Of a DNA stretch of 64,000 bases, positions 18,031-28,057 are shown in pieces; position 1 is the first letter of the stretch, and each line of letters opens with the position of its first letter. Origin of the DNA: an uncultured Acidobacteriota bacterium (GTDB lineage: Bacteria; Acidobacteriota; UBA6911). The notes below the pieces were generated by a model that worked only from the letters and a program-made list of their open reading frames with translations, made no database searches and was not told the origin of the DNA. Location: assembly GCA_963809485.1 (NCBI GenBank), contig CAWEJX010000007.1, forward strand, positions 96,001 to 160,000. Reading direction: 5' to 3'. The translations under genes and the position numbers were made by a program.

Positions 18031-19506
18031 TTGTTCAGGCACATTCCCAAAGGAACCCATGTCGGAAGGCGTGATTTCATCAGGACCACAACCATGGCGG
18101 GCATGGCGGCGAAACTTCCGGGGACTTCCCTTATGGGTCAGGAGTCCGGGGATTCACCGAAGCCCGGGCCTGACGGAACGAAAAGAAGGTTGCTTTGCCT
18201 GACCGACTCCCCGCCTGCATTGGAAAAGTTCTTCGAATCGGTACGGGCAATTAAGGAAGCCGATCTCCTTGTGAATCCGGTCAAGGTTAGTTTTCAAAAG
18301 CCGCAGGAAGTGATCGACTCCATCCGGGGCAACGAGGCGGATATCATTCTTATGTGCCTGCCGCGTTTCACCTTCAGCTTCGGAAAGCTTTATGACTCTC
18401 TGGGAGATCCGGGCATCCCAATGGTGATTTTTGCGCAGAGTCCCGACCTGATCCTGATTGATGCCAATTTTGCGGCATCACTGAGGGCCAATGGCGCAAA
18501 GGTGTTGTTCGCCACTTCACAGGCGCAGGCCATCGAGATGCTGCAAGCCGTCGCTGCTCCCAGGATTCTCGAAGGCAAGCGGGCTGTCATCTATGGCAGA
18601 CCGTTTGACTCGACCAGCGTGCCGGCGCGCAACCTGAATGAGGATTACGTCAACAGGCGGACAGGGGTCAGGATCCAGTACCGTCCGATGGATGAGCTGA
18701 TACAGCTTTATAAACTCACGGACGAAGCCGGCGCCGTAAAGGAAGCGGAGAGGTGGAAAAAGGAGGCGGCGGCAGTCGTTGAGCCTTCGGACAAGACCAT
18801 TCTTGACGCGAGCAGGCTCTATGTCCTGCTGCGCTCGATTATCGAAAAAGAGGGATTATCCGCGGTCTCCATCGACTGCCTGGGCCTCCTCTTTAATCCC
18901 AATCCTCCGTTGCCGTACCCGTGTCTTCCATTTGCGCGGCTGCGCGACGAAGGATTCACCGCCGCGTGTGAAGCCGACGTATGCGGGCTGCTGTCCTCAA
19001 TGTTTTTGCAGGAGATCAGCCGGAAGCCTTCGTTTTTATGCAACGTGCTGTCGGTGAACATGCAGCAGTCGAGCACCGCGCTCAGCCACTGCGTTGCTCC
19101 GTTGAAGCTGATGGGGCGTGAAGCTTCCCCGCTGCCGTACAAGCTCCGCGACTATCACGGTATGGGAAAAGGTGTTGTGCCCGAAGTGGCGTTCCCGGTA
19201 GGAATCGAGGTGATCGCGGGCGCATTCACCAAGGATTTGAAAAACTTCGTGCTCTGGCCCGGAAGGATCCAGGTAGGAGCGAAGACCGACACGGATACGC
19301 CCGCCCCGGCATCTCCCGCCGGCTTCAGGCGCATGACCTGCTCGAATTACGTGGAAGTAAAAATCAGGGATGCCGATCGTTTTCTGCAGAACATCGCGGG
19401 CATCCACCACATCATGATTTCCGGGAATTACACAACGGCCATGCAAGACGCGCTGCTTGCCATGAATGTGGGCCTTATCGGTCCTTCAGATTTCACCGCG
19501 CCGTAA
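18031..19506 (+). CDS. Tat-signal protein with L-fucose/L-arabinose isomerase-like C-terminal region
   Basis: GRRDFIR twin-arginine motif; SIDCL, ACEADV, LSHC and GIHHIMISG resemble fucose-isomerase-like proteins. Confidence 0.6.
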   Translation: MFRHIPKGTHVGRRDFIRTTTMAGMAAKLPGTSLMGQESGDSPKPGPDGTKRRLLCLTDSPPALEKFFESVRAIKEADLLVNPVKVSFQKPQEVIDSIRGNEADIILMCLPRFTFSFGKLYDSLGDPGIPMVIFAQSPDLILIDANFAASLRANGAKVLFATSQAQAIEMLQAVAAPRILEGKRAVIYGRPFDSTSVPARNLNEDYVNRRTGVRIQYRPMDELIQLYKLTDEAGAVKEAERWKKEAAAVVEPSDKTILDASRLYVLLRSIIEKEGLSAVSIDCLGLLFNPNPPLPYPCLPFARLRDEGFTAACEADVCGLLSSMFLQEISRKPSFLCNVLSVNMQQSSTALSHCVAPLKLMGREASPLPYKLRDYHGMGKGVVPEVAFPVGIEVIAGAFTKDLKNFVLWPGRIQVGAKTDTDTPAPASPAGFRRMTCSNYVEVKIRDADRFLQNIAGIHHIMISGNYTTAMQDALLAMNVGLIGPSDFTAP

Positions 19507-19507
19507 A

Positions 19508-19554
19508 GAAATTGGGGAAATTGGGGGAAATTGGAAATTGGGGACATCCCATAA
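19508..19554 (+). repeat. Stuttered repeat ending in GGGACATCCCAT
   Basis: GAAATTGGG/GAAATTGGGG/GAAATTG/GAAATTGGGGACATCCCATAA. Confidence 0.8.
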
Positions 19555-19666
19555 TGGTTCTGAAGCCGATCGGACTTCAAGCAAAAAGACCGTTGCCGAT
19601 AATGAGCCTTATTCCACTTCCTATCTGCTAAAATAGTAGACAATCACAAAGACAGGAGACCCCACC

Positions 19667-19927
19667 ATGGAAGAATCCGAACCAACCAAAGAGGAGTTGC
19701 TGAAACGCATCGCGGAGTTGGAGCAGCAGGCCCAGACCAGGAAACCGGTGAGCCTGGAGTTTCGGGTCAGTGAAAAAGGGGGTATCAGCGTTTACGGCCT
19801 GGGGCGGTTCCCCGTAACGCTTTATTACGAGCAGTGGATGAGGCTGCTGGACCGCGCCGCGGAACTGCGGGACTTTATCGAAGAAAACAAAAGCAGACTG
19901 AAAATGAAGCCCCGCGCCGGTGAATAA
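19667..19927 (+). CDS. Small conserved hypothetical protein (coiled coil plus possible PC4-like fold)
   Basis: Good RBS (AGGAG). N-terminal amphipathic helix, then FRVSEKGGISVYGLGRFPVTLYYEQWMRLL. Confidence 0.75.
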   Translation: MEESEPTKEELLKRIAELEQQAQTRKPVSLEFRVSEKGGISVYGLGRFPVTLYYEQWMRLLDRAAELRDFIEENKSRLKMKPRAGE

Positions 19928-19932
19928 CTGGT

Positions 19933-19989
19933 GAATGACCGGGAATGAGAATGACGGGAGAAATGACGGGAATGACGGGACACCCACTT
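19933..19989 (+). repeat. Stuttered repeat ending in GGGACACCCAC
   Basis: GAATGACCGG/GAATGA/GAATGACGGGA/GAAATGACGG/GAATGACGGGACACCCAC. Confidence 0.8.
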
Positions 19990-20261
19990 CCTATTAAGTT
20001 CGCAGGGCTCCGGCTGTAGTCCTGGATCAAAATGCATTCGCTGCCAAGCTTTGTGGGCGAAGACGCCCGGTTGAGGTATCGACGAGGATGCCCATTGGTG
20101 TCTGGCTTGGGGACTCTCTAACCGCTATTCAGGAACCGGCTGAGATCAAAATTGCATCAAAATTCGACATCCGGGCCGGTTGGAATCCTGGAGCACTGTT
20201 GGATTTTCTTCCCACACCTTAATGAATCCACATCGCTCTCAGATAGCCACAGGAGGCAGGC

Positions 20262-21305
20262 ATGAGAGTCTTTCTCACAGGAGCAACCGGTTTCATCGGA
20301 CAACACCTTGCCGGAGCGCTTATCAAGCGCGGCTGGAGCGTGATCGCTCTTGTGCGCAAACCTGACAGCCCGCAATCGCAGGCCGTGCGAAGAGTTGGCG
20401 TGCAACTGGCACCAGGGGACATCACCGTGCGAGAATCGATGCGGGCGCCCATGAGCGGCGCAGATATCGTGGTACACAATGCCGCAGCCTATCAATTGGG
20501 TACAGACAGGTCAGAGAAGCAGAGCATGCGGTCGGCAAACGTCGATGGCACGGAGAACGTACTGGGTCTTGCCCATGAACTAAAAATTCCGCGCACCGTT
20601 TACGTATCCACGGTTCTGGCGACGGGGGAGACCGGAACCGAGATGCGCGATGAAACCTATAAGCGGCAATATCCGTGCCGCTCAACCTATGAACAGACGA
20701 AAATGGAAGCCCACGAAACTGCCGGCAGATACAGGGAGAGAGGGCTTCCGCTTATCATCGTTTGCCCGGGCCCTGTGATCGGCGCGAATGACCACTCCGT
20801 CTGGGGCTATTTCCAGCGCATGTACGTAAATCGCGTTCTGCCGCCCATGGCATGGGCCCCCGGGTCGATCTTCTGTTGCGTTTCAGTGGAGGATCTGGCC
20901 GAAGGCATAGCGCTGGCAGCTGAAAAGGGCCGGATCGGGGAAACATATCTGCTGTGCGGAGAAGCTCAGTCTTTTGGCGAGATCCTCAAACTATGGAGCA
21001 GGAAACCTGGTGCCTTCCATACAAAAATCTGGCTTCCGGCTCCTCTTGCGGCTCCAATGTTTGCACTCCTGGAGCCGATACAGAGAATGGTTGGCTTACC
21101 CGCCGTCCTCTCACGTGAAACCGCCCGAACCGCGGCGACAAATATGCATTATTCCGGCGAAAAGGCAAAACGGGAGTTGGGCTGGAAGCATTGCTCTGCG
21201 GAAGAGATGTGGTTGCGCACTATTGATAGGGAAACTCAATTTCTGGCCAGACGCAAAACTCAGAAATTGGTTCAGCGCCTCAAGCCGCTGGATTTCGCTG
21301 AATAA
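20262..21305 (+). CDS. NAD-dependent epimerase/dehydratase (extended SDR)
   Basis: TGATGFIG, HNAA, YEQTK (YxxxK). Confidence 0.9.
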   Translation: MRVFLTGATGFIGQHLAGALIKRGWSVIALVRKPDSPQSQAVRRVGVQLAPGDITVRESMRAPMSGADIVVHNAAAYQLGTDRSEKQSMRSANVDGTENVLGLAHELKIPRTVYVSTVLATGETGTEMRDETYKRQYPCRSTYEQTKMEAHETAGRYRERGLPLIIVCPGPVIGANDHSVWGYFQRMYVNRVLPPMAWAPGSIFCCVSVEDLAEGIALAAEKGRIGETYLLCGEAQSFGEILKLWSRKPGAFHTKIWLPAPLAAPMFALLEPIQRMVGLPAVLSRETARTAATNMHYSGEKAKRELGWKHCSAEEMWLRTIDRETQFLARRKTQKLVQRLKPLDFAE

Positions 21306-21490
21306 GGGATTGGCGCATGCCTTCAGGGACCGCATGGCCCACCGCCGTCTCAATTATCCCGCAAGGCTGCATCATAACTTGCGACTAGCCGGGCGGAGGC
21401 GGCCTTCCGGCCGCTCCTGCAAAATGTGGATCCCCCTTCCCAATAAACCGCTTGTTCAGGTGACATTCCGGCCCGATCTCACAAAGCCAA

Positions 21491-23020
21491 TTACCTATAT
21501 TTGGGTTCACGCCGGGGCACAGCAGGCCGGTTGGCTCCGTGCGAGGGTTTGAGAGGCGGACGCGACATTACTGAAGGAGCGGGGAATCGCGGCATGCATT
21601 CGGCCTGGGAGGAGCCGAACTCCATGGCGCCGATGTCCGGGGCGCTGCCGCCGGGGCGCTCGCGGTTGAAGTAGTCCAACGTGTTTCCGGCTATGGTGGC
21701 GCCGGCGTCCACTGTCAGGCTGTCGGGGTTCACCAGATCAAAATCCGATACGGTGGTTCCCGCGATGTCGGCAAAGCCGAGATTGACATAATTGGGATCC
21801 TCGGGACCCGAGTAGCTGACAAAAAGATTGTTGCTTCCATCAAACGCCGAGTCAATCAACCAGTTCCGGGGCCTGGAGATGCCGTCCAGAACATACAGGT
21901 TATTGGTCAGGTGCACGGTTCCGGGGACAAGCTGGCCGCCGCTCATACCCGATGACTCGGCGGTGAAGATGATCCAGAGAATTCCTGCGTTGCGCGATCC
22001 CGGATGCTGGATGAGGGTGTTGCTGTAAAAGTGAACATTTTCAAGGTTGGTGTTGTTCACTTGAAGCAGGCCCATCCAGGCACTGTCGACGATCAGGTTG
22101 TTGTGGAAGGACAAATCCTTGAAAAGCCCTTTGCCCCGATCGCCAAAGTACGAGGCGGCTTCAAAGAAGCCGCAGTTGTTGTAGGAGAAATTGTGGTGCA
22201 CGTGAACATTTTCGATGGTGCCTCCGGATGATGCGGAAACCTCGGTGGCGCCGCCGTCGCAATCGCCGTTGCTTCCCACCCATCTGGCGGGGCCTGTGCA
22301 GTTGATGAACGAATTGTAGGACACCTCATTGTTTGAGGCATTGATGAAAATGCCTTCGGCGCCGCCCACCAGGTTCGGATCCACGCCCGGATTTTCGTCG
22401 ATACCCATGATGAGGTCGTGAACGTAGTTGCCGCGAACGAGAGAGCCTTCGGCGCCCAGCATGATGCCGATATCGCAGTCGTCGATTCCATTGTTTATAA
22501 ACGTTGTTGCGGCTCCCAGAAAGGCGGTGATGCCCCCGACGATGCCTTTGGTGATCCCGTCCCGGTCGAAGTCAAAATCATGCACCATGGTGTTGTCGCC
22601 CCGGGCACCCGAGAAATGCAGGCCGTCGATAGTGAGAGGCTTAAACGAGAGCACAACGGGGCCTCTTCCGGGTTCGCTCGACACTCTGAAATGGGGCAGA
22701 GGATCGTTTTGGGGACCGTAGTTGGTGTATACCTTTGCGTTGTAGCCGAAGCGGACGTTGTTAAAGTAAGTCGGAATGGCCAATTTTTCGTTGAAGACGC
22801 TGCCGCGTTTGAAGCGAACCACGGTGCAGGAAGCATGGATGGCTGATTGGGATTTCACCGGAGTGGCTTCCGAAAGACCGTTGTTCGTGTCGTTCCCGTT
22901 CACGCTGTCCACGTAACAGGTTGTTTCGCCTTCGTCGTAGGCATCTTCCACCGTGCAGGTTTGATAGCGATCGGTATAAACAAAGGCAGCGGTATGATAT
23001 ACAGGTGATATACAGGACAC
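21491..23020 (-). CDS. Right-handed beta-helix (pectin-lyase-like) protein, probably 5' truncated
   Basis: YVDSVNGNDTNNGLSEATP, Asn-rich beta-helix repeats, C-terminal PDIGAME. No signal peptide, and the ORF starts inside the stutter repeat. Confidence 0.7.
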   Translation of the reverse strand: MSCISPVYHTAAFVYTDRYQTCTVEDAYDEGETTCYVDSVNGNDTNNGLSEATPVKSQSAIHASCTVVRFKRGSVFNEKLAIPTYFNNVRFGYNAKVYTNYGPQNDPLPHFRVSSEPGRGPVVLSFKPLTIDGLHFSGARGDNTMVHDFDFDRDGITKGIVGGITAFLGAATTFINNGIDDCDIGIMLGAEGSLVRGNYVHDLIMGIDENPGVDPNLVGGAEGIFINASNNEVSYNSFINCTGPARWVGSNGDCDGGATEVSASSGGTIENVHVHHNFSYNNCGFFEAASYFGDRGKGLFKDLSFHNNLIVDSAWMGLLQVNNTNLENVHFYSNTLIQHPGSRNAGILWIIFTAESSGMSGGQLVPGTVHLTNNLYVLDGISRPRNWLIDSAFDGSNNLFVSYSGPEDPNYVNLGFADIAGTTVSDFDLVNPDSLTVDAGATIAGNTLDYFNRERPGGSAPDIGAMEFGSSQAECMPRFPAPSVMSRPPLKPSHGANRPAVPRREPKYR

Positions 23021-23080
23021 CCATTAACCAGCATCAAACGGAACGTAAGCAGGACGCAAGCACGCAAGCAGGACACCCAT
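22995..23080 (+). repeat. Two stuttered repeats, each ending in GGACACCCAT
   Basis: TGATATACAGG/TGATATACAGGACACCCATT and ACGTAAGCAGG/ACGCAAGC/ACGCAAGCAGGACACCCAT. Confidence 0.8.
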
Positions 23081-23169
23081 GAAAAAAGGGTGTATAAATC
23101 AGGAGCTTTTAAAGTATCGTTTTAAGAATCATCCTGCAAACGCGAAACGAAGCGCATAAGGAGACCTAT

Positions 23170-23667
23170 ATGGACAGGGTAAAGCTCGCCGCTGTGTCGG
23201 CATTTGTGCTTGTAGCGGTAACTGTTTCCCTCTCATTCTCCGCCGAAAAGGATATCGTGCGTGCGAAAGACCGTGTGGAGATTGAGCAATTGATGTGGCG
23301 CTACATTCAGGCGCTTGACTCGGGTAATGCTGAAGCCTATGCAGCCCTGTTCGCGCCGGACGGGCAGTTCGGCAGGGGTGCCACGGCTGTCAAAGGACGG
23401 GAGGCACTGAAGAAAATGGTCTCAGATGCCAGGCAAAAACTGGATGCCGAGAAACAGAGCGGCAAGAAAATGCCGCGCATGTTTCACATCGTGACAAATC
23501 CCCATATTGAATTCATCGACAAAGACCATGCGCGTTACTATGCCTATTGGATGGGGGCCTTCGCGTCGGGAGGAGGAATTACCTCGGCCGGCCGTGAGGT
23601 CAATGAGCTTGTGAGGTTGAATAAGCAGTGGTTCATAAGCGTGCGTGATGTAGATCCTCAGGATTGA
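23170..23667 (+). CDS. Secreted SnoaL/NTF2-like domain protein
   Basis: Signal peptide; DRVEIEQLMWRYIQALDSG...ALFAPDG...HIVTNPHI. Confidence 0.8.
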   Translation: MDRVKLAAVSAFVLVAVTVSLSFSAEKDIVRAKDRVEIEQLMWRYIQALDSGNAEAYAALFAPDGQFGRGATAVKGREALKKMVSDARQKLDAEKQSGKKMPRMFHIVTNPHIEFIDKDHARYYAYWMGAFASGGGITSAGREVNELVRLNKQWFISVRDVDPQD

Positions 23668-23805
23668 GGAAGCAGGAATCGCGCGCACATTCCGGTACTG
23701 GAGGGATAAGCAGGAGAGTTGTTGGCCCAAATATGAAAGATCTTTTGAGAAGCCCTTCTATTTGCTTGATATTGGCGTTTTCGATCCTCTGCTAAGTCAG
23801 CAAGG

Positions 23806-23868
23806 GGAAGGAGGAAGGTTGACACCCATAATCTGCTTGTTGCCCACAATCTGCCTGTTGTCATCTGC
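23806..23868 (+). repeat. Stuttered repeat around GACACCCAT
   Basis: GGAAGGA/GGAAGGTT-GACACCCATAATCTGCTTGTTG/CCCACAATCTGCCTGTTG/..ATCTGC. Confidence 0.6.
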
Positions 23869-23925
23869 TATTCTTTTTAGTCTCCAACTTTTGTTCAAGC
23901 CCCCCAGCATTCCCCAGGATTCTTC

Positions 23926-24140
23926 TGGTTACCGCACTCTTTCAAGGCTTTCGGGTGTAGAATTGTGCTAAGTCATTAAGAGCAAATCAGGATGAGCAAT
24001 ACCGCTGCGGATACAACAGGACTCTTAGCATATGATGGATGGTTACCGCACTCTTTCAAGGCTTTCGGGTGTAGAATTGTGCTAATTCATTAAGAGCAAA
24101 TCAGGATGAGCGATACCGCTGCGGATACCAACCAGGACTC
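23926..24140 (+). repeat. ~99 bp near-perfect direct duplication (period 114 bp)
   Basis: TGGTTACCGCACTCTTTCAAGG...CAGGACTC at 23926-24024 and 24040-24140. Confidence 0.9.
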
Positions 24141-24780
24141 CCTTTCAGGCATGACGGCATCCGGACGATGGTTTGTGCTTCTGTCACCGCTGGCGGTTAT
24201 AGGGCTCGGGCATTTGACAACGCGTCTGTTTTCACATTTCATCGATGCTGGGCATGGCTCTGCGATCGTGATTGTCATCATGTAATTATTAGTATTCTGG
24301 GCATGGGCTCCTTTGCAGATCGTGTATTGGTTCGCCATGGCCATGGTAATTTATTGGAGCGGTGGATTAGGCGAGGTAATCTCTGCTTATAAAAGGATTA
24401 GCGGATGGCGATGGTGGTTGGCTGGAATCGCAGTCGGCCTGATGACATGTCCTGTACTCCTGCATAATTTCGGCTTGCTTCGTGACTTTCAACTTGTGAT
24501 GCCCTGGTTGCTTCTGGCTTTTATCAACCCATTCTTCGAGGAAAGTTATTGGCGTGGATTGTTTGGTCAGGTAACAAGCGCTAGCCGGCTTTTTTTTGCA
24601 TGCTTGTACCCCACCATTTTTTTACAGCAGGGCATCCGCTGCAGTGGGGCGTATTTTCGGTTGTCTGACGCAGATGGGAAATGATCGCATCCATGCTTAT
24701 CATGGGCATGGTTTGGAGCGCCATTTACCTATATACCCGAAGCCTTAAGGCAGCGACCTTTTCGCCTATGTTAGTCGACA
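24106..24780 (+). pseudogene. Degraded CPBP (CAAX/Abi) intramembrane metalloprotease
   Basis: INPFFEESYWRG (EExxxR motif) in ORF 24313-24684; hydrophobic segments continue in other frames. End coordinate approximate. Confidence 0.65.
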
Positions 24781-24853
24781 GCGCAATGGCATCCGGTGGG
24801 TATATACTCTATCCGACAACGATAGGACATACGGTTTTCGGATTCGAAAAGAA

Positions 24854-26623
24854 ATGATCAAAATCCCTTTGTATCCGCACACCCGCTACACTTCGGCGAC
24901 CATGCCAAAGTCACAAGCTTCAAAATGGATTGCGGTTCTGGCAATCTTCGTTTTAATCGAAATTGTATTTTGCCCGTGGCCTCAAGTTTCGGCGAAAGAT
25001 ACGAGTTTTAAGAGGATTATAAGGGGTACCGTCCGTGACGACCAAGCTACTCTTCCCGGCGCCGTGGTCCGAATCCAGACAACGCAGCATAGCACGGTAA
25101 CCGGTGCCGAGGGAGAATTTAAACTGGCTGTACCCAAGATTTTCAGCGGTCCAGTTAAACTCACAGCCTGGGCTAAAGGATATTTCATTGGAGGGCCGGT
25201 TGAAGCCTCGCCTGGGCAAAACAATGTGACGATTACGCTTCATCCACACAGTAAATGGGACAATCGCGAATACAAATGGTTGCCTTCCTTCCGATCTGCA
25301 GGTTCCGGCGAAAATCAGGGCTGCTCCGAATGTCACTTTCGAGGCAAGGTTGATTCAGGACCCACTCTTCCCGTTGACGAATGGCTCGAGGACGCTCATT
25401 CCCAATCCGCCGTCAACCCACGTTTCCTCACTATGCATGCCGGAACAGACATGTCAGGTCGCCGGAGCGCCGCAACCGCGTATAAGCGTCTAAGTGACTC
25501 CAGCCTAGTTCCTCTTCCCCCAAATCCTGCAGAGCCCTATTATGGACCGGGGTTTAAGCTCGACTATCCGAACCATACCGGCAATTGCGGTGCCTGTCAT
25601 GTTCCCTTGGCGGCGGTCAATTCACCGCTAAATGTCAATCCTGTTTCAATCCAGGATGTCGAGGCCGAAGGCGTCAACTGCGACTTTTGCCATAAAATTT
25701 GGGATGTCCACCTCGATCAAGCCACAGGGCTTCCTTTTCCCGACCAACCCGGGGTGCTTGCCTACGAATTCCGGAGACCGTTTCAGGGACATCAGTTCTT
25801 TGCCGGGCCCCTGGACGACATCGCGCCTGGCGAGGACACCTATTCAAAGCTTCAGAAGAGCAGCCAGTTCTGTGCTCCGTGCCATTTTGGAGTTTTTGGT
25901 GATACGGTTGTTTACGATTCCTTCGGGGAGTGGCTGCGAAGCCCTTACAGTCGAGAAGAGACAGGAAAGACTTGCCAGGATTGCCATATGCCGAGGTCGA
26001 AGGCCGAATTCTTTGCCCACGCCGGAAAGGGCGGGCTTAAGCGCGATTCCAATACCATCGCCAGCCACAGGATGACTGGGACCAGAGACCTGGACCTTCT
26101 CCAGAACGCCGTTTCAATGTACCTTGAAGCGGAATACTTGCACGAAGGGATCCGGGTCAGAACGACGGTTGTTAACGATCGCACAGGTCACCACGTCCCA
26201 ACGGATACCCCGCTTCGGCATCTAATACTTATGGTCCGAGCGTGGGATAGCGATGGTTTTGCGCTGCCTCTCAAGGCGGGTCCCGTCCTTCCGGAGTGGT
26301 GCGGTTCTGGTAATCCGGCAGATGGCTACTACGCCGGGCTTCCCGGAAAGGTGTACGCCAAACTGCTCGAAGAGACATGGACTGGAGTATCCCCAACCGC
26401 TGCCTATTGGAACGCAACCCGAATAGTAATGGACACCCGGCTTGGAGCGTTTGAATCCGATGTCGGTGAATTCCTGTTTTCTGCTCCTGACTCGGGAAAT
26501 GGACGAATCGAGGCTGTCCTTCTCTACCGGAGGGCCTATAAGAAGCTTATGGATCTCAAGGGCTGGAGTGATCCCGACATCGTTATGGAGTCAGCTGCGG
26601 TCTCGGTCTCTCAAAAGCACTGA
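24854..26623 (+). CDS. Multiheme (5 CxxCH) cytochrome c with N-terminal carboxypeptidase-regulatory-like domain
   Basis: CSECH, CGACH, CDFCH, CAPCH, CQDCH; signal/TM segment; IRGTVRD...PGAVVRI...G.F.L beta-sandwich; GHHVPT. Confidence 0.85.
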   Translation: MIKIPLYPHTRYTSATMPKSQASKWIAVLAIFVLIEIVFCPWPQVSAKDTSFKRIIRGTVRDDQATLPGAVVRIQTTQHSTVTGAEGEFKLAVPKIFSGPVKLTAWAKGYFIGGPVEASPGQNNVTITLHPHSKWDNREYKWLPSFRSAGSGENQGCSECHFRGKVDSGPTLPVDEWLEDAHSQSAVNPRFLTMHAGTDMSGRRSAATAYKRLSDSSLVPLPPNPAEPYYGPGFKLDYPNHTGNCGACHVPLAAVNSPLNVNPVSIQDVEAEGVNCDFCHKIWDVHLDQATGLPFPDQPGVLAYEFRRPFQGHQFFAGPLDDIAPGEDTYSKLQKSSQFCAPCHFGVFGDTVVYDSFGEWLRSPYSREETGKTCQDCHMPRSKAEFFAHAGKGGLKRDSNTIASHRMTGTRDLDLLQNAVSMYLEAEYLHEGIRVRTTVVNDRTGHHVPTDTPLRHLILMVRAWDSDGFALPLKAGPVLPEWCGSGNPADGYYAGLPGKVYAKLLEETWTGVSPTAAYWNATRIVMDTRLGAFESDVGEFLFSAPDSGNGRIEAVLLYRRAYKKLMDLKGWSDPDIVMESAAVSVSQKH

Positions 26624-26862
26624 GATTTTAGGAGATATGCATCAAAAAGGCATCACGTTTGTGACTAAGAACTTCCCAACATGATATCGGGCGATTTGAT
26701 TGAGATGCCAACTGCACGAGCCCTGCGCTTGACGTAAAACTGGAATGTGAACCCGATTTTGACCGCAGCCCCGGAAGCCATCGATTCACAGCCCTGCAAT
26801 TTTGAGCCCACTAATCACCAAATTGCCTGGAAAGCCCCAGGTATTCGCATCTGATTCTCCGA

Positions 26863-27116
26863 TAATCTGTAATCTGTAAATGTATTCTGTGGGTGTATTG
26901 TGTGGGTGTCCCCATTATCCCAGTGTGGGTGTCCCCGATATTTCCCCGATATTCCTTTCCCCGATATTCGGTGGGTGTCCCCGATATGTTCCGGTGGGTG
27001 TCCCCGATATCCGTCCCCGATATCCGTCCCCGATATCCCGATATCCTTCCTCTCCGATATCCTTCCCCATATTCGGTGTCCCCGATATTCCCGATATCCC
27101 CGATATCACCCGATAC
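26863..27116 (-). repeat. Large stuttered array: four GTGGGTGTCCCC plus about a dozen CCGATAT units
   Basis: Reverse complement reads (ATATC)GGGGACACCCAC at 26902, 26925, 26971 and 26994, with truncated copies around them. Confidence 0.9.
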
Positions 27117-27161
27117 TCACTGTTGGGGCGTTAGTCATTTCCAGCACCGTGGAAATCGAGG

Positions 27162-27713
27162 CTAGGCTGATTTATCGAGCTTCTTGAAAATTGAGACCGC
27201 GACGGGTTCAAACAGCGTGGCGTAGGCAGTGCCGATCATGAAAAAAATCGCTCCCCAGAGCCAATTAATGTTCGATGGATTCGCATTCTCCTTGAGCGCA
27301 AACCAGATGCCGTAAGTTCCGAGAGCAAACGCGGCCATATTGAACCACGTGTCCTTCAGCACCACCACATGAACGAGAGTAAGCAAATACGTTACAAGCA
27401 ACGCGCAGATGCCGAATGCAACGATAGCACCCAACCCCCAGCCTAAGAGCAAATCCAGGAGGCCGAAAAAGCATACTCCGTAGGCTGGCCCGCAGGCGGC
27501 GCTGCACAGCATATTCGGCAAAGTCTTGAACGACCCTCGTTGGGCCACGACAAGACCAAGCCCCGCAAACGCGCACCACAGAAGATTGAACAGCGGATGC
27601 ATCTTGCTCGCATCCATCGGATTGAAATTGAATAGGACCGCCCAGACAATGCAAAAGAAAGTAATGCCGATCGTAACCGTAGTGGCAAGAATGAAAAAGA
27701 ATTTCTTCGACAT
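27162..27713 (-). CDS. Membrane protein (DUF1097-like)
   Basis: Several hydrophobic helices, W.AFAG motif, RBS GGGGG upstream of ATG 27713. Confidence 0.6.
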   Translation of the reverse strand: MSKKFFFILATTVTIGITFFCIVWAVLFNFNPMDASKMHPLFNLLWCAFAGLGLVVAQRGSFKTLPNMLCSAACGPAYGVCFFGLLDLLLGWGLGAIVAFGICALLVTYLLTLVHVVVLKDTWFNMAAFALGTYGIWFALKENANPSNINWLWGAIFFMIGTAYATLFEPVAVSIFKKLDKSA

Positions 27714-28057
27714 CGTTATCCCCCCTGTTTCTGCAAATAGAATATCCCTGGTACGCAACGAATATGAAAACCTGTTGATGCCGCTGACTGGCCGGGAATC
27801 GGCTACCGAAAATCGCTCCCATTATCGCACGTTTGCAGGCAATCCATGCAGGATCATGAGCAATTTCAGAACGGCCGCCGCCACGCCCCTGCCATCCGCA
27901 TTGCGGATCGATTGGTACCTTGCGGAACTCTGCTTCAGAGCCGTCATCCCTGCCTTTTAGGATTCCACTTCCTCCTTCCGTTTCAGCAGCCTATAATGAG
28001 GCCCAAGAACCACCAATTTCTGCCATGCGGCATGGAAATTTTCGCTCGGAGGAATTC

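Follow-up and report, generated by a model that had tools for sequence, protein, structure and literature searches.

What acts repeatedly on the gene junctions of this stretch of DNA? The window, 64,000 nucleotides (nt) from an uncultured Acidobacteriota bacterium, corresponds to C7:96001-160000 of the source genome G000 (6.04 Mb, 21 contigs, 96% complete) and contains intergenic sites at which a short core, GGACACCCA or a one-letter variant of it, adjoins truncated tandem copies of the neighbouring DNA, referred to below as stutters. A preliminary description of this DNA suggested that a sequence-specific nicking or recombination enzyme, for example an HUH/RAYT-type nuclease acting in trans, cuts at these sites while genes are gained or lost. 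We consider it probable, at roughly 0.6, that the sites are recognition words of an HUH nuclease of TnpA-Y1 subclass 2.3, which is encoded at eight other loci of G000 and would formerly have been encoded at 23740-23930 of the window, and that a cycle of nicking, extension and resealing leaves the stutters. The observations that carry this reading are that the motif accompanies the nuclease genes, that its duplications share one geometry, that the repeated unit is host DNA and that the stutters vary between relatives.

A stuttered motif in the window and across the genome

The cores named in the preliminary description were all found at their six places: on the + strand GGACATCCC at 19542, GGACACCCA at 19978, 23015 and 23071, and TGACACCCA at 23820, and on the - strand four copies of GGACACCCA, at 27003, 26980, 26934 and 26911 (sites 1 to 6; Table 1). 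The degenerate word GGACAYCCM occurs 13 times in the window versus 2.36 +/- 1.49 times in shuffled sequence. Two features had been overlooked: a decayed site at 19630 and, at 23900-23928, the stump of an element end. The repeats are, as had been proposed, local copies anchored on the motif, with a unit specific to each site; only at 23821 did the picture change, the 5' 'GGAAGG' repeat being weak and uncalled by our tests and a 3'-side stutter being present instead. All of the stuttered sites in the window are oriented toward one short interval, described below as a relic.

Calling a stutter wherever a local repeat of at least 8 nt ends at the core, we found one on the 5' side of 32 of the 93 GGACACCCA sites in G000. 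The corresponding figures are 0.385% for 20,000 random positions and 13 of 2,980 for the sites of 60 permuted 9-mers, so that partial tandem copies beside the motif are enriched genome-wide, a point that the preliminary description had proposed to test. A local repeat on the 3' side is present at 11 of the 93 sites (0.77% of 20,000 random positions). One-letter variants of the core are mostly without stutter (2 of 99 for GGACATCCC, 0 of 41 for TGACACCCA). A de novo ranking of k-mers was at first swamped by an IS200-derived repeat family, and scoring by distinct flanks recovered GGACACCCA together with a second motif. An Rfam search of window positions 19000-28000 gave no match.

The motif brackets genes of a subclass 2.3 HUH nuclease

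Inward-facing clusters of the motif bracket the copies of a 371-aa protein, P0001, in G000. The genome holds eight such nuclease loci, comprising four intact copies (identical to P0001 or 92-94% identical to it), one 3'-truncated, one frameshifted and two partial, and every end that is retained carries an inward core or a one-letter variant. All 20 copies of GGACACCCAY within 1 kb of a nuclease gene point inward, as do 3 of the 5 at 1-25 kb; a further 38 lie farther away. The same arrangement recurs in other genomes. Among the best 80 of 579 metagenomic loci (37-70% identity), we looked for a relaxed core in the 200 nt on each side wherever the flank was long enough: it faces inward in 59 of 70 upstream and 40 of 56 downstream flanks and outward in 1 and 6, respectively; the commonest inward words are GACACCC and ACACCCA, and the flanks are site-specific. 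Congeneric and same-class loci have this inward layout and site-specific stutters, and ten gammaproteobacterial loci (10 of 13 matches in a plasmid collection, 35-43% identity) mostly show recognisable core variants when read by eye. Nested sites surround nuclease loci on contigs C4 and C6 of G000 and in G024. Among 31 genomes, some of them kin and hence not independent, the median motif density is 7.7 per Mb in the 15 with a strong nuclease match versus 1.3 per Mb in the 16 others. Two high-motif outliers without an assembled gene hold gene stubs (G005) and a gene leader (G010), both at contig ends, and distant homologues (~30% identity) in G023 and G026 are without the motif; the loci concerned (L032, L033 and L035) were left out of the duplication counts below. 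Inward pairs of stuttered cores also occur with no gene between them: many are present in G010 (loci L276-L305), 90-250 bp apart and with unrelated interiors, and a minimal unit at G000:C20:1127716-1127790 consists of two inward stuttered cores 74 bp apart.

Judged by its motifs, P0001 is a member of TnpA-Y1 subclass 2.3, a group of RAYT-like HUH nucleases. It contains N70-H71-F72-H73 (NHFH), RFWESRF and Y178-VDLNP, in agreement with the subclass signature (NH[Y/F]H, WE, YVDLNP); its H73-to-Y178 spacing of 105 aa and long C-terminal tail fit the subclass (HuH-to-Y about 110 aa), as does the presence of several copies per genome, here eight loci. H73 and Y178 are invariant in 72 homologues, and the HUH and Tyr residues overall are invariant or nearly so. 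An AlphaFold model (pLDDT 89) has E. coli TnpA-REP as its best match (Foldseek E 9e-4; Z 11.6, rmsd 3.0, 158 aligned). The HUH/RAYT-type nuclease that had been offered as an example is therefore, on motif association, inward flanks and fold match, the most likely agent, in the form of a subclass 2.3 enzyme. Profile and database searches give less: P0001 partially matches NF047646, a Pfam scan found no family at E 0.01, including no C-terminal HTH or Bac_DnaA_C domain, a PF01797 profile search missed the subclass 2.3 genes, no solved structure was matched by sequence, and no full-length family member was found among viral contigs. The family comprises 1,225 clusters at 50% identity (E up to 1e-30); a scan of genome contigs with a single protein query returned only 3 loci. 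Across 104 nuclease loci no neighbouring gene recurs (the largest cluster comprises 2 loci), and neither a tyrosine recombinase nor a reverse transcriptase, the partners that had been envisaged, recurs beside the nuclease.

Separately, a second tyrosine, Y283, in the subclass-specific C-terminal domain is invariant in 72/72 homologues and is possibly catalytic. At G000:C7:496750-496830, where a subclass 2.3 gene has lost its 5' half, a different stutter is present, (GGCCA)n followed by (GGTGCA)n, which by eye adjoins a toxin-antitoxin-like pair and a transposase fragment.

The window as a probable relic of a nuclease element

A second genome of the same genus, G006, is collinear with the region of the window studied here at 84-96% identity. 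Opposite 160 bp of the window (23740-23902), G006 has 1.9 kb containing an intact gene for a 371-aa subclass 2.3 nuclease, inward sites and a 320-bp duplicate of the 5' end of the nuclease gene. At one element end the window has lost the core but retains the repeat unit, from which we infer that the common ancestor of G000 and G006 had the gene and that the window has lost it. The enzyme is thus not merely a distant factor acting in trans, as had been supposed: the orthologous region of G006 encodes it amid these very sites, and the window is a relic.

Orthologous stutters differ in length between the two genomes, as expected from the preliminary description. At sites 1, 2 and 6 the unit is conserved and the copy number differs; at site 1, G006 has two copies of the AAATTGG(GG)-type unit and a different upstream gene, and the outermost unit of site 6, GAGTATCGGG (27109-27118), is the unit found in G006. 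The orthologue of the decayed site at 19630 has two intact cores in G006, both stuttered. Site 1 is also covered by contigs from two further public runs, whose alignments contain 7 and 26 gap letters; at the low depth of these contigs this is suggestive only.

Gene-scale differences also abut the sites. Outside the relic there are three, at site 1, sites 3/4 and site 6, each on the 5' side of the site. At sites 1 and 6 the break in synteny coincides with the start of the repeat, and at site 6 the first base of the outermost unit is the exact point of attachment of a 0.83-kb segment. The reported gene truncation at a site is borne out by comparison with homologues of the gene at 21491-23020, which have 72-215 residues before TCYVDS (4/4) versus 34 here, and of which 3/4 parsed have a signal-peptide-like leader; the gene is cut at or directly before the start of site 3. 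Among 30 of the 34 motif loci of G006, the nine unstuttered ones of coding type are collinear with G000 across the site and most of the stuttered ones lie at breaks. In an intergenic control over 437 kb, breaks fall in 5 of 7 motif spacers versus 55 of 194 other spacers (p 0.026), but 4 of the 5 broken motif spacers belong to this locus, and the suggested enrichment of synteny breaks is weak once that locus is discounted.

Elsewhere, the nuclease copy on contig C4 of G000 is absent from the orthologous site of G006, the nearest G006 relative being located at another place. The flanks of two further G000 copies have no adjoining orthologues in G006 and hence provide no empty site.

Geometry of the duplications

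To describe the duplications we pooled 556 distinct RGACAYCCA sites from the metagenomic, gammaproteobacterial and congeneric loci and from G000 itself, chance coding matches included. A tandem copy is present at 165 of them; most (135) are short and usually have a period of 9-12 nt. The junctions of 51 of 110 exact duplications are free of overlap, and 79 of the 110 overlap by at most 1 nt. The 51 overlap-free duplications start at -7 to -11 relative to the core in 46 cases and end at -1 to +2 in 38, and they begin with any of the four bases (G 23, T 12, A 12, C 4). Twenty long duplications run through the core; with two ambiguous rows of locus L130 dropped, 18/18 (22-60 nt) restart at -6 to -14 and have ends scattered from +12 to +50, a clustering of starts with P about 1e-7 under uniform starts, the rows being not fully independent. 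Still longer duplications (38, 121, 131, 153, 205 and 320 bp), some of them 99-100% identical, have their restart between -8 and -15. On the opposite strand, 12 of 18 short rows looked clean by eye, and their mirror stutters begin again at -6 to -11, so that the mirror and main stutters are symmetric about TGG-ACAC-CCA. In an independent set from G010 duplications are present at 12 of 43 sites, and 11 of the 12 start at -6 to -13. Arrays additionally contain nested, diverging and inverted local fillers. By eye, non-orthologous copies of the element share 7-8 nt beyond the core, and the unit can therefore travel with an element end.

Stutters within a core gene

That the repeated unit is of host origin is illustrated by mtaB, which encodes a tRNA methylthiotransferase (TIGR01579, above cut-off). 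This gene lies ~1 kb from a subclass 2.3 gene in both G000 and G006 (G000:C7:494526-495851; G006:C1:15858-17261), and its Gly-His-Pro codons read GGACACCC[AG], a motif match. Both genes carry in-frame stutters in this loop, of +12 nt (+4 residues) in G000 and of +90 nt (+30 residues, with three cores) in G006. We matched mtaB in 12 of 30 genomes, three of the 12 not being parsed; the 7/7 other parsed orthologues have a plain loop, lacking both motif and stutter, and the locus fetched for each contains no nuclease. Judged from these alleles, the comparison shows that the stutter process acts on a chance motif match in a core gene and that the repeated unit is host DNA.

Proposed mechanism and alternatives

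In the reading that we favour, the enzyme would bind the pseudo-palindrome TGG-ACAC-CCA and nick the strand that carries the motif, some 8-10 nt to the 5' side of the GG, at a position set by distance and not by sequence, remaining on the 5' end as a phosphotyrosine. The free 3'-OH would be extended by host polymerase with strand displacement, usually for 9-12 nt until halted by the bound enzyme at GG(A) and sometimes for 20-320 nt, and the enzyme would then reseal the extended 3' end to the held 5' end, giving a tandem duplication that always starts at the same point but ends at varying ones. Over repeated rounds, arrays and multiplied cores would arise, and resection of the 3' end, or entry of a foreign 3'-OH, would delete DNA on one side or attach a new neighbour at that same position. 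The opposite strand would be nicked more weakly in mirror fashion, which would account for 3' stutters and could eliminate the interior so that gene-less end pairs remain. The whole would be a slowly mobile element resembling an insertion sequence (IS), with tips about 9 nt outside the core, that also scars chance motif matches in nearby host DNA. Cleavage as such and the choice of strand are suggested by these sequence patterns, the substrate may be duplex DNA, and the enzyme may be active at present.

Several findings weigh against this reading. Known relatives cut single-stranded DNA at guide-defined sequences beside hairpins, so that cutting by distance would be unprecedented. At the sole empty orthologous site ~150 unrelated bases replace the element and there is no clean junction. 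Several coding motif matches near the relic, among them those at 25709 and 26431, have no stutter, and the mtaB contrast rests on two close relatives in which the effect of the motif cannot be separated from that of a nearby nuclease gene. Duplications at the motif do not overlap less at their junctions than background duplications do, and for periods of 8-16 nt they overlap slightly more (p 0.005-0.008); overlaps of at least 8 nt are present in 13 of the 110 exact duplications, so that slippage adds to established arrays. Finally, a top-strand nick with extension and a staggered double nick with fill-in are alike on sequence grounds; the latter also predicts periods of 22-28 nt, which half of the long duplications have.

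In this last alternative the same enzyme would nick both strands in a staggered manner, the top one near -9 and the bottom one near +2 or, beyond the core, +16. After fill-in and rejoining, the stutters would be footprints, resembling target-site duplications, of integration or excision events that aborted at the ends of the element itself. Both ends of the short duplications are indeed fairly fixed, the clean mirror stutters restart at -6 to -11 on the other strand, and the 22-28 nt span of about half of the long duplications corresponds to -9 to +16. We nevertheless regard this as unlikely: duplications of 34-320 bp keep the -9 start without a fixed end, and no direct repeat surrounds whole elements at the loci inspected. 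Non-homologous end joining was considered for the rejoining step, but a search of the 96% complete G000 found no Ku for blunt joining.

It seems distinctly improbable that a protein bound without cutting forms a replication roadblock at which polymerase slippage or template switching generates the stutters and breaks. The nested, diverging and inverted fillers of the arrays, the long overlaps and the junction overlap at or above background would suit such a process. Against this, 51 of the 110 exact duplications are free of overlap and 79 have at most 1 nt, the fixed end 9 nt outside the core coincides with rearrangement joints and is also, by eye, where non-orthologous element ends cease to be similar, and the HUH and Tyr residues are invariant or nearly so in 72 homologues. 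A pure roadblock explains the overlap-free junctions and the coincidence with rearrangement joints less simply.

An integron-like cassette or gene-capture system, with each passenger gene between two directly repeated sites, would explain why nested sites separate unrelated accessory genes and all point at the position of the nuclease, here and in the similarly nested loci of C4, C6 and G024. This cassette reading, which the preliminary description had raised, is disfavoured because the three differences between the window and G006 outside the relic are one-sided, the segments gained or lost having a site at one end and none at the other; no partner recombinase recurs in the 104 loci, and the excess of breaks is weak outside this locus. 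With its one-sided breaks and no recurring neighbour gene it is largely refuted, and we rate it as very improbable. An assembly artefact at the low-complexity ends of a repeated element, conceivable for a 21-contig assembly in which some long duplications are 99-100% identical, has next to no probability given that the same geometry is found in 80 independent metagenomic loci, complete gammaproteobacterial replicons and congeneric genomes, that units are orthologous yet diverged between genomes and that the mtaB insertions preserve the reading frame.

A second nuclease and wider implications

G000 encodes a second nuclease, of subclass 2.1 or TIRYT type, with ends GGGGTCGGACCACGATAAA (C20:1132539-1133378, C7:643861-648053, C7:581042-581286, C5:91729-91973, C4:390204-390447 and C20:1133494-1133741). 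Its gene-less inward pairs are still spaced 244-249 bp apart although the sequence between them has diverged, and the stutters in their flanks follow the same geometry; the motif of this nuclease, GGGGTCGGACC, has a stutter geometry like that of subclass 2.3 at 11 of 37 sites in G000.

For subclasses 2.1 and 2.3 no substrate or activity is given in the passages of the literature consulted. The candidate substrate for subclass 2.3 is RGACAYCCA, with a predicted cut ~9 nt 5' of the GG on either strand and a fixed-start tandem duplication as the predicted product. If this is true, it would be an HUH enzyme needing neither hairpin nor guide pairing and a source of sequence-directed insertions able to alter core genes in frame, and it would explain the odd stuttered intergenic DNA that is common in environmental genomes. 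A bolder proposal, which we consider quite unlikely, is that the HUH enzymes of subclasses 2.1 and 2.3 form a motif-programmed system of local DNA rewriting, in which ruler-like cutting of duplex DNA with nick-extend-reseal would expand protein loops, reshape promoters and leaders and swap accessory genes within ~20 kb, and which the host would keep as a generator of diversity beyond a by-product of transposition.

Feature map and neighbouring genes

The features of the window are collected in Table 1.

Table 1. Sites, relic and adjoining genes of the window (positions are those of the window).
Feature	Position	Strand	Description
Site 1	19506..19550	+	Four AAATTGG(GG) copies, then core GGACATCCC; left synteny break versus G006 at start of stutter
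Decayed site	19630..19646	+	Core mutated to AGACAATCA; no stutter
86-aa gene, unknown function	19667..19927	+	Stop codon inside outermost repeat of site 2
Site 2	19922..19986	+	About five diverging GAATGACG/T copies, then GGACACCCA; three copies in G006
NAD-dependent epimerase/dehydratase, passenger gene	20262..21305	+	PF01370, E 9e-28
5'-truncated secreted-type protein gene	21491..22994	-	Choice-of-anchor Q domain at cut-off; absent from G006
Site 3	22995..23023	+	TGATATACAGG x2, then core
Site 4	23042..23079	+	ACG(T/C)AAGC(AGG) copies, then core
SnoaL-like gene, passenger	23170..23667	+	PF13577, E 1e-20
Relic interval	23740..23902	.	160 bp with site 5 (TGACACCCA at 23820, 3'-side stutter)
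Stump of the element's other end	23900..23928	-	Unit GGAATGCTGG common to G006; core gone
Direct duplication, ~115 bp	23929..24140	+	Adjoins stump on its outer side; single copy in G006
Site 6 array	26863..27118	-	Four cores, ~15 diverging (G)ATATCGGG units, plus 3' stutters
0.83-kb segment with 198-aa membrane-type gene	27119..27950	-	Absent from G006

Downstream of the ~115-bp duplication, an Rce1/CPBP-like gene (24090-24786) is broken in the window and open for 262 aa in G006. It is followed by a multiheme cytochrome c gene with a carboxypeptidase-regulatory-like domain (24854-26623), which contains the unstuttered variants at 25709 and 26431. Upstream, a sugar-isomerase-like gene is intact in the window (18031-19506); in G006 its 3' part is replaced by the gene for an 810-aa glycine-rich repeat protein, which lies beside an IS200-derived repeat end (G006:C36:36300-38860; L066:14303-16735) and has paralogues elsewhere in G000.

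Comparison with known systems

Searches of the literature found no description of the subclass 2.3 motif or of its stutters, figures and supplements, which may list such flanks, lying outside their cover; among 605 matches to GGACACCCA those listed are unrelated, and the word 'tandem' is absent from the Bertels and Rainey preprint in the part consulted. Class 2 Y1 (RAYT-like) nucleases are present in about a quarter of the species surveyed by Quentin, Siguier, Chandler and Fichant (2018; PMC6006769), whose available passages report no REP-like flanking sequence for subclass 2.3 and give no function. The nuclease studied here resembles that subclass in its NH[YF]H, WE and YVDLNP motifs, long HuH-to-Tyr spacing, long C-terminal tail, multiple copies and gammaproteobacterial relatives; it differs from the subclass as described in those passages in its conserved inward non-hairpin motif, gene-less end pairs and motif-anchored duplications.

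TIRYTs and their TIRtrons, with a terminal inverted repeat (TIR) consensus GGGGWSAS (Di Nocera et al., 2013; PMC3733652), were mapped mainly to subclass 2.1 by Quentin et al., none of 26 falling in subclass 2.3 according to the passages available (PMC6006769). As far as the text passages describe them, they are alike in having a Y1 gene between inverted non-REP repeats and solo and paired repeats elsewhere in the genome. The consensus GGGGWSAS is matched by five G-preceded copies in the 26913-27083 array, whereas most subclass 2.3 sites (TGGACACCCA, 50/93) do not match it. Further differences from TIRYTs as described there are that only a 9-10 nt core, and not a long TIR, is common to the sites here and that P0001 has no C-terminal HTH or Bac_DnaA_C match. 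The text passages of the TIRYT paper, as distinct from its figures and supplements, make no mention of flank duplications or of action on host genes (PMC3733652).

E. coli TnpA-REP, according to the passages available, is single-copy, binds GTAG hairpins, cuts at CT and nicks with formation of a 5'-phosphotyrosine, which in the authors' view any 3'-OH could resolve (PMC3479197). With RAYTs and their REP-BIME substrates, so described, the present system shares the closest solved fold and strand transfer to a free 3'-OH; it is unlike TnpA-REP in that the nuclease is multi-copy and mobile, has no hairpin requirement and would have its cut set by distance. A REPtron combines GT[AG]G-footed hairpin repeats with a single-copy gene, but here the flanks differ by site, no formal hairpin scan having been run, and the gene is multi-copy. 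From IS200/IS605 the nuclease is set apart by its length (371 aa versus a short TnpA), by Y---NP in place of Y---Q and by ends that are inverted on opposite strands and not same-strand subterminal hairpins.

IS91 elements have two catalytic tyrosines. They have distinct oriIS and terIS ends and a tetranucleotide target, in the passages available (PMC13181058). Compared with IS91 rolling-circle transposition as presented there, the likenesses are an HUH enzyme, the absence of a target-site duplication, rearrangement of neighbouring DNA by one-ended events and a similar nick-and-extend logic, and the differences are the symmetric inverted copies of one word at both ends, the IS200/RAYT fold group and micro-duplication as the main product. 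By the features tested, the system works like a TIRtron or a one-ended rolling-circle element, and is not a REPtron, IS200/IS605, IS91 or an integron.

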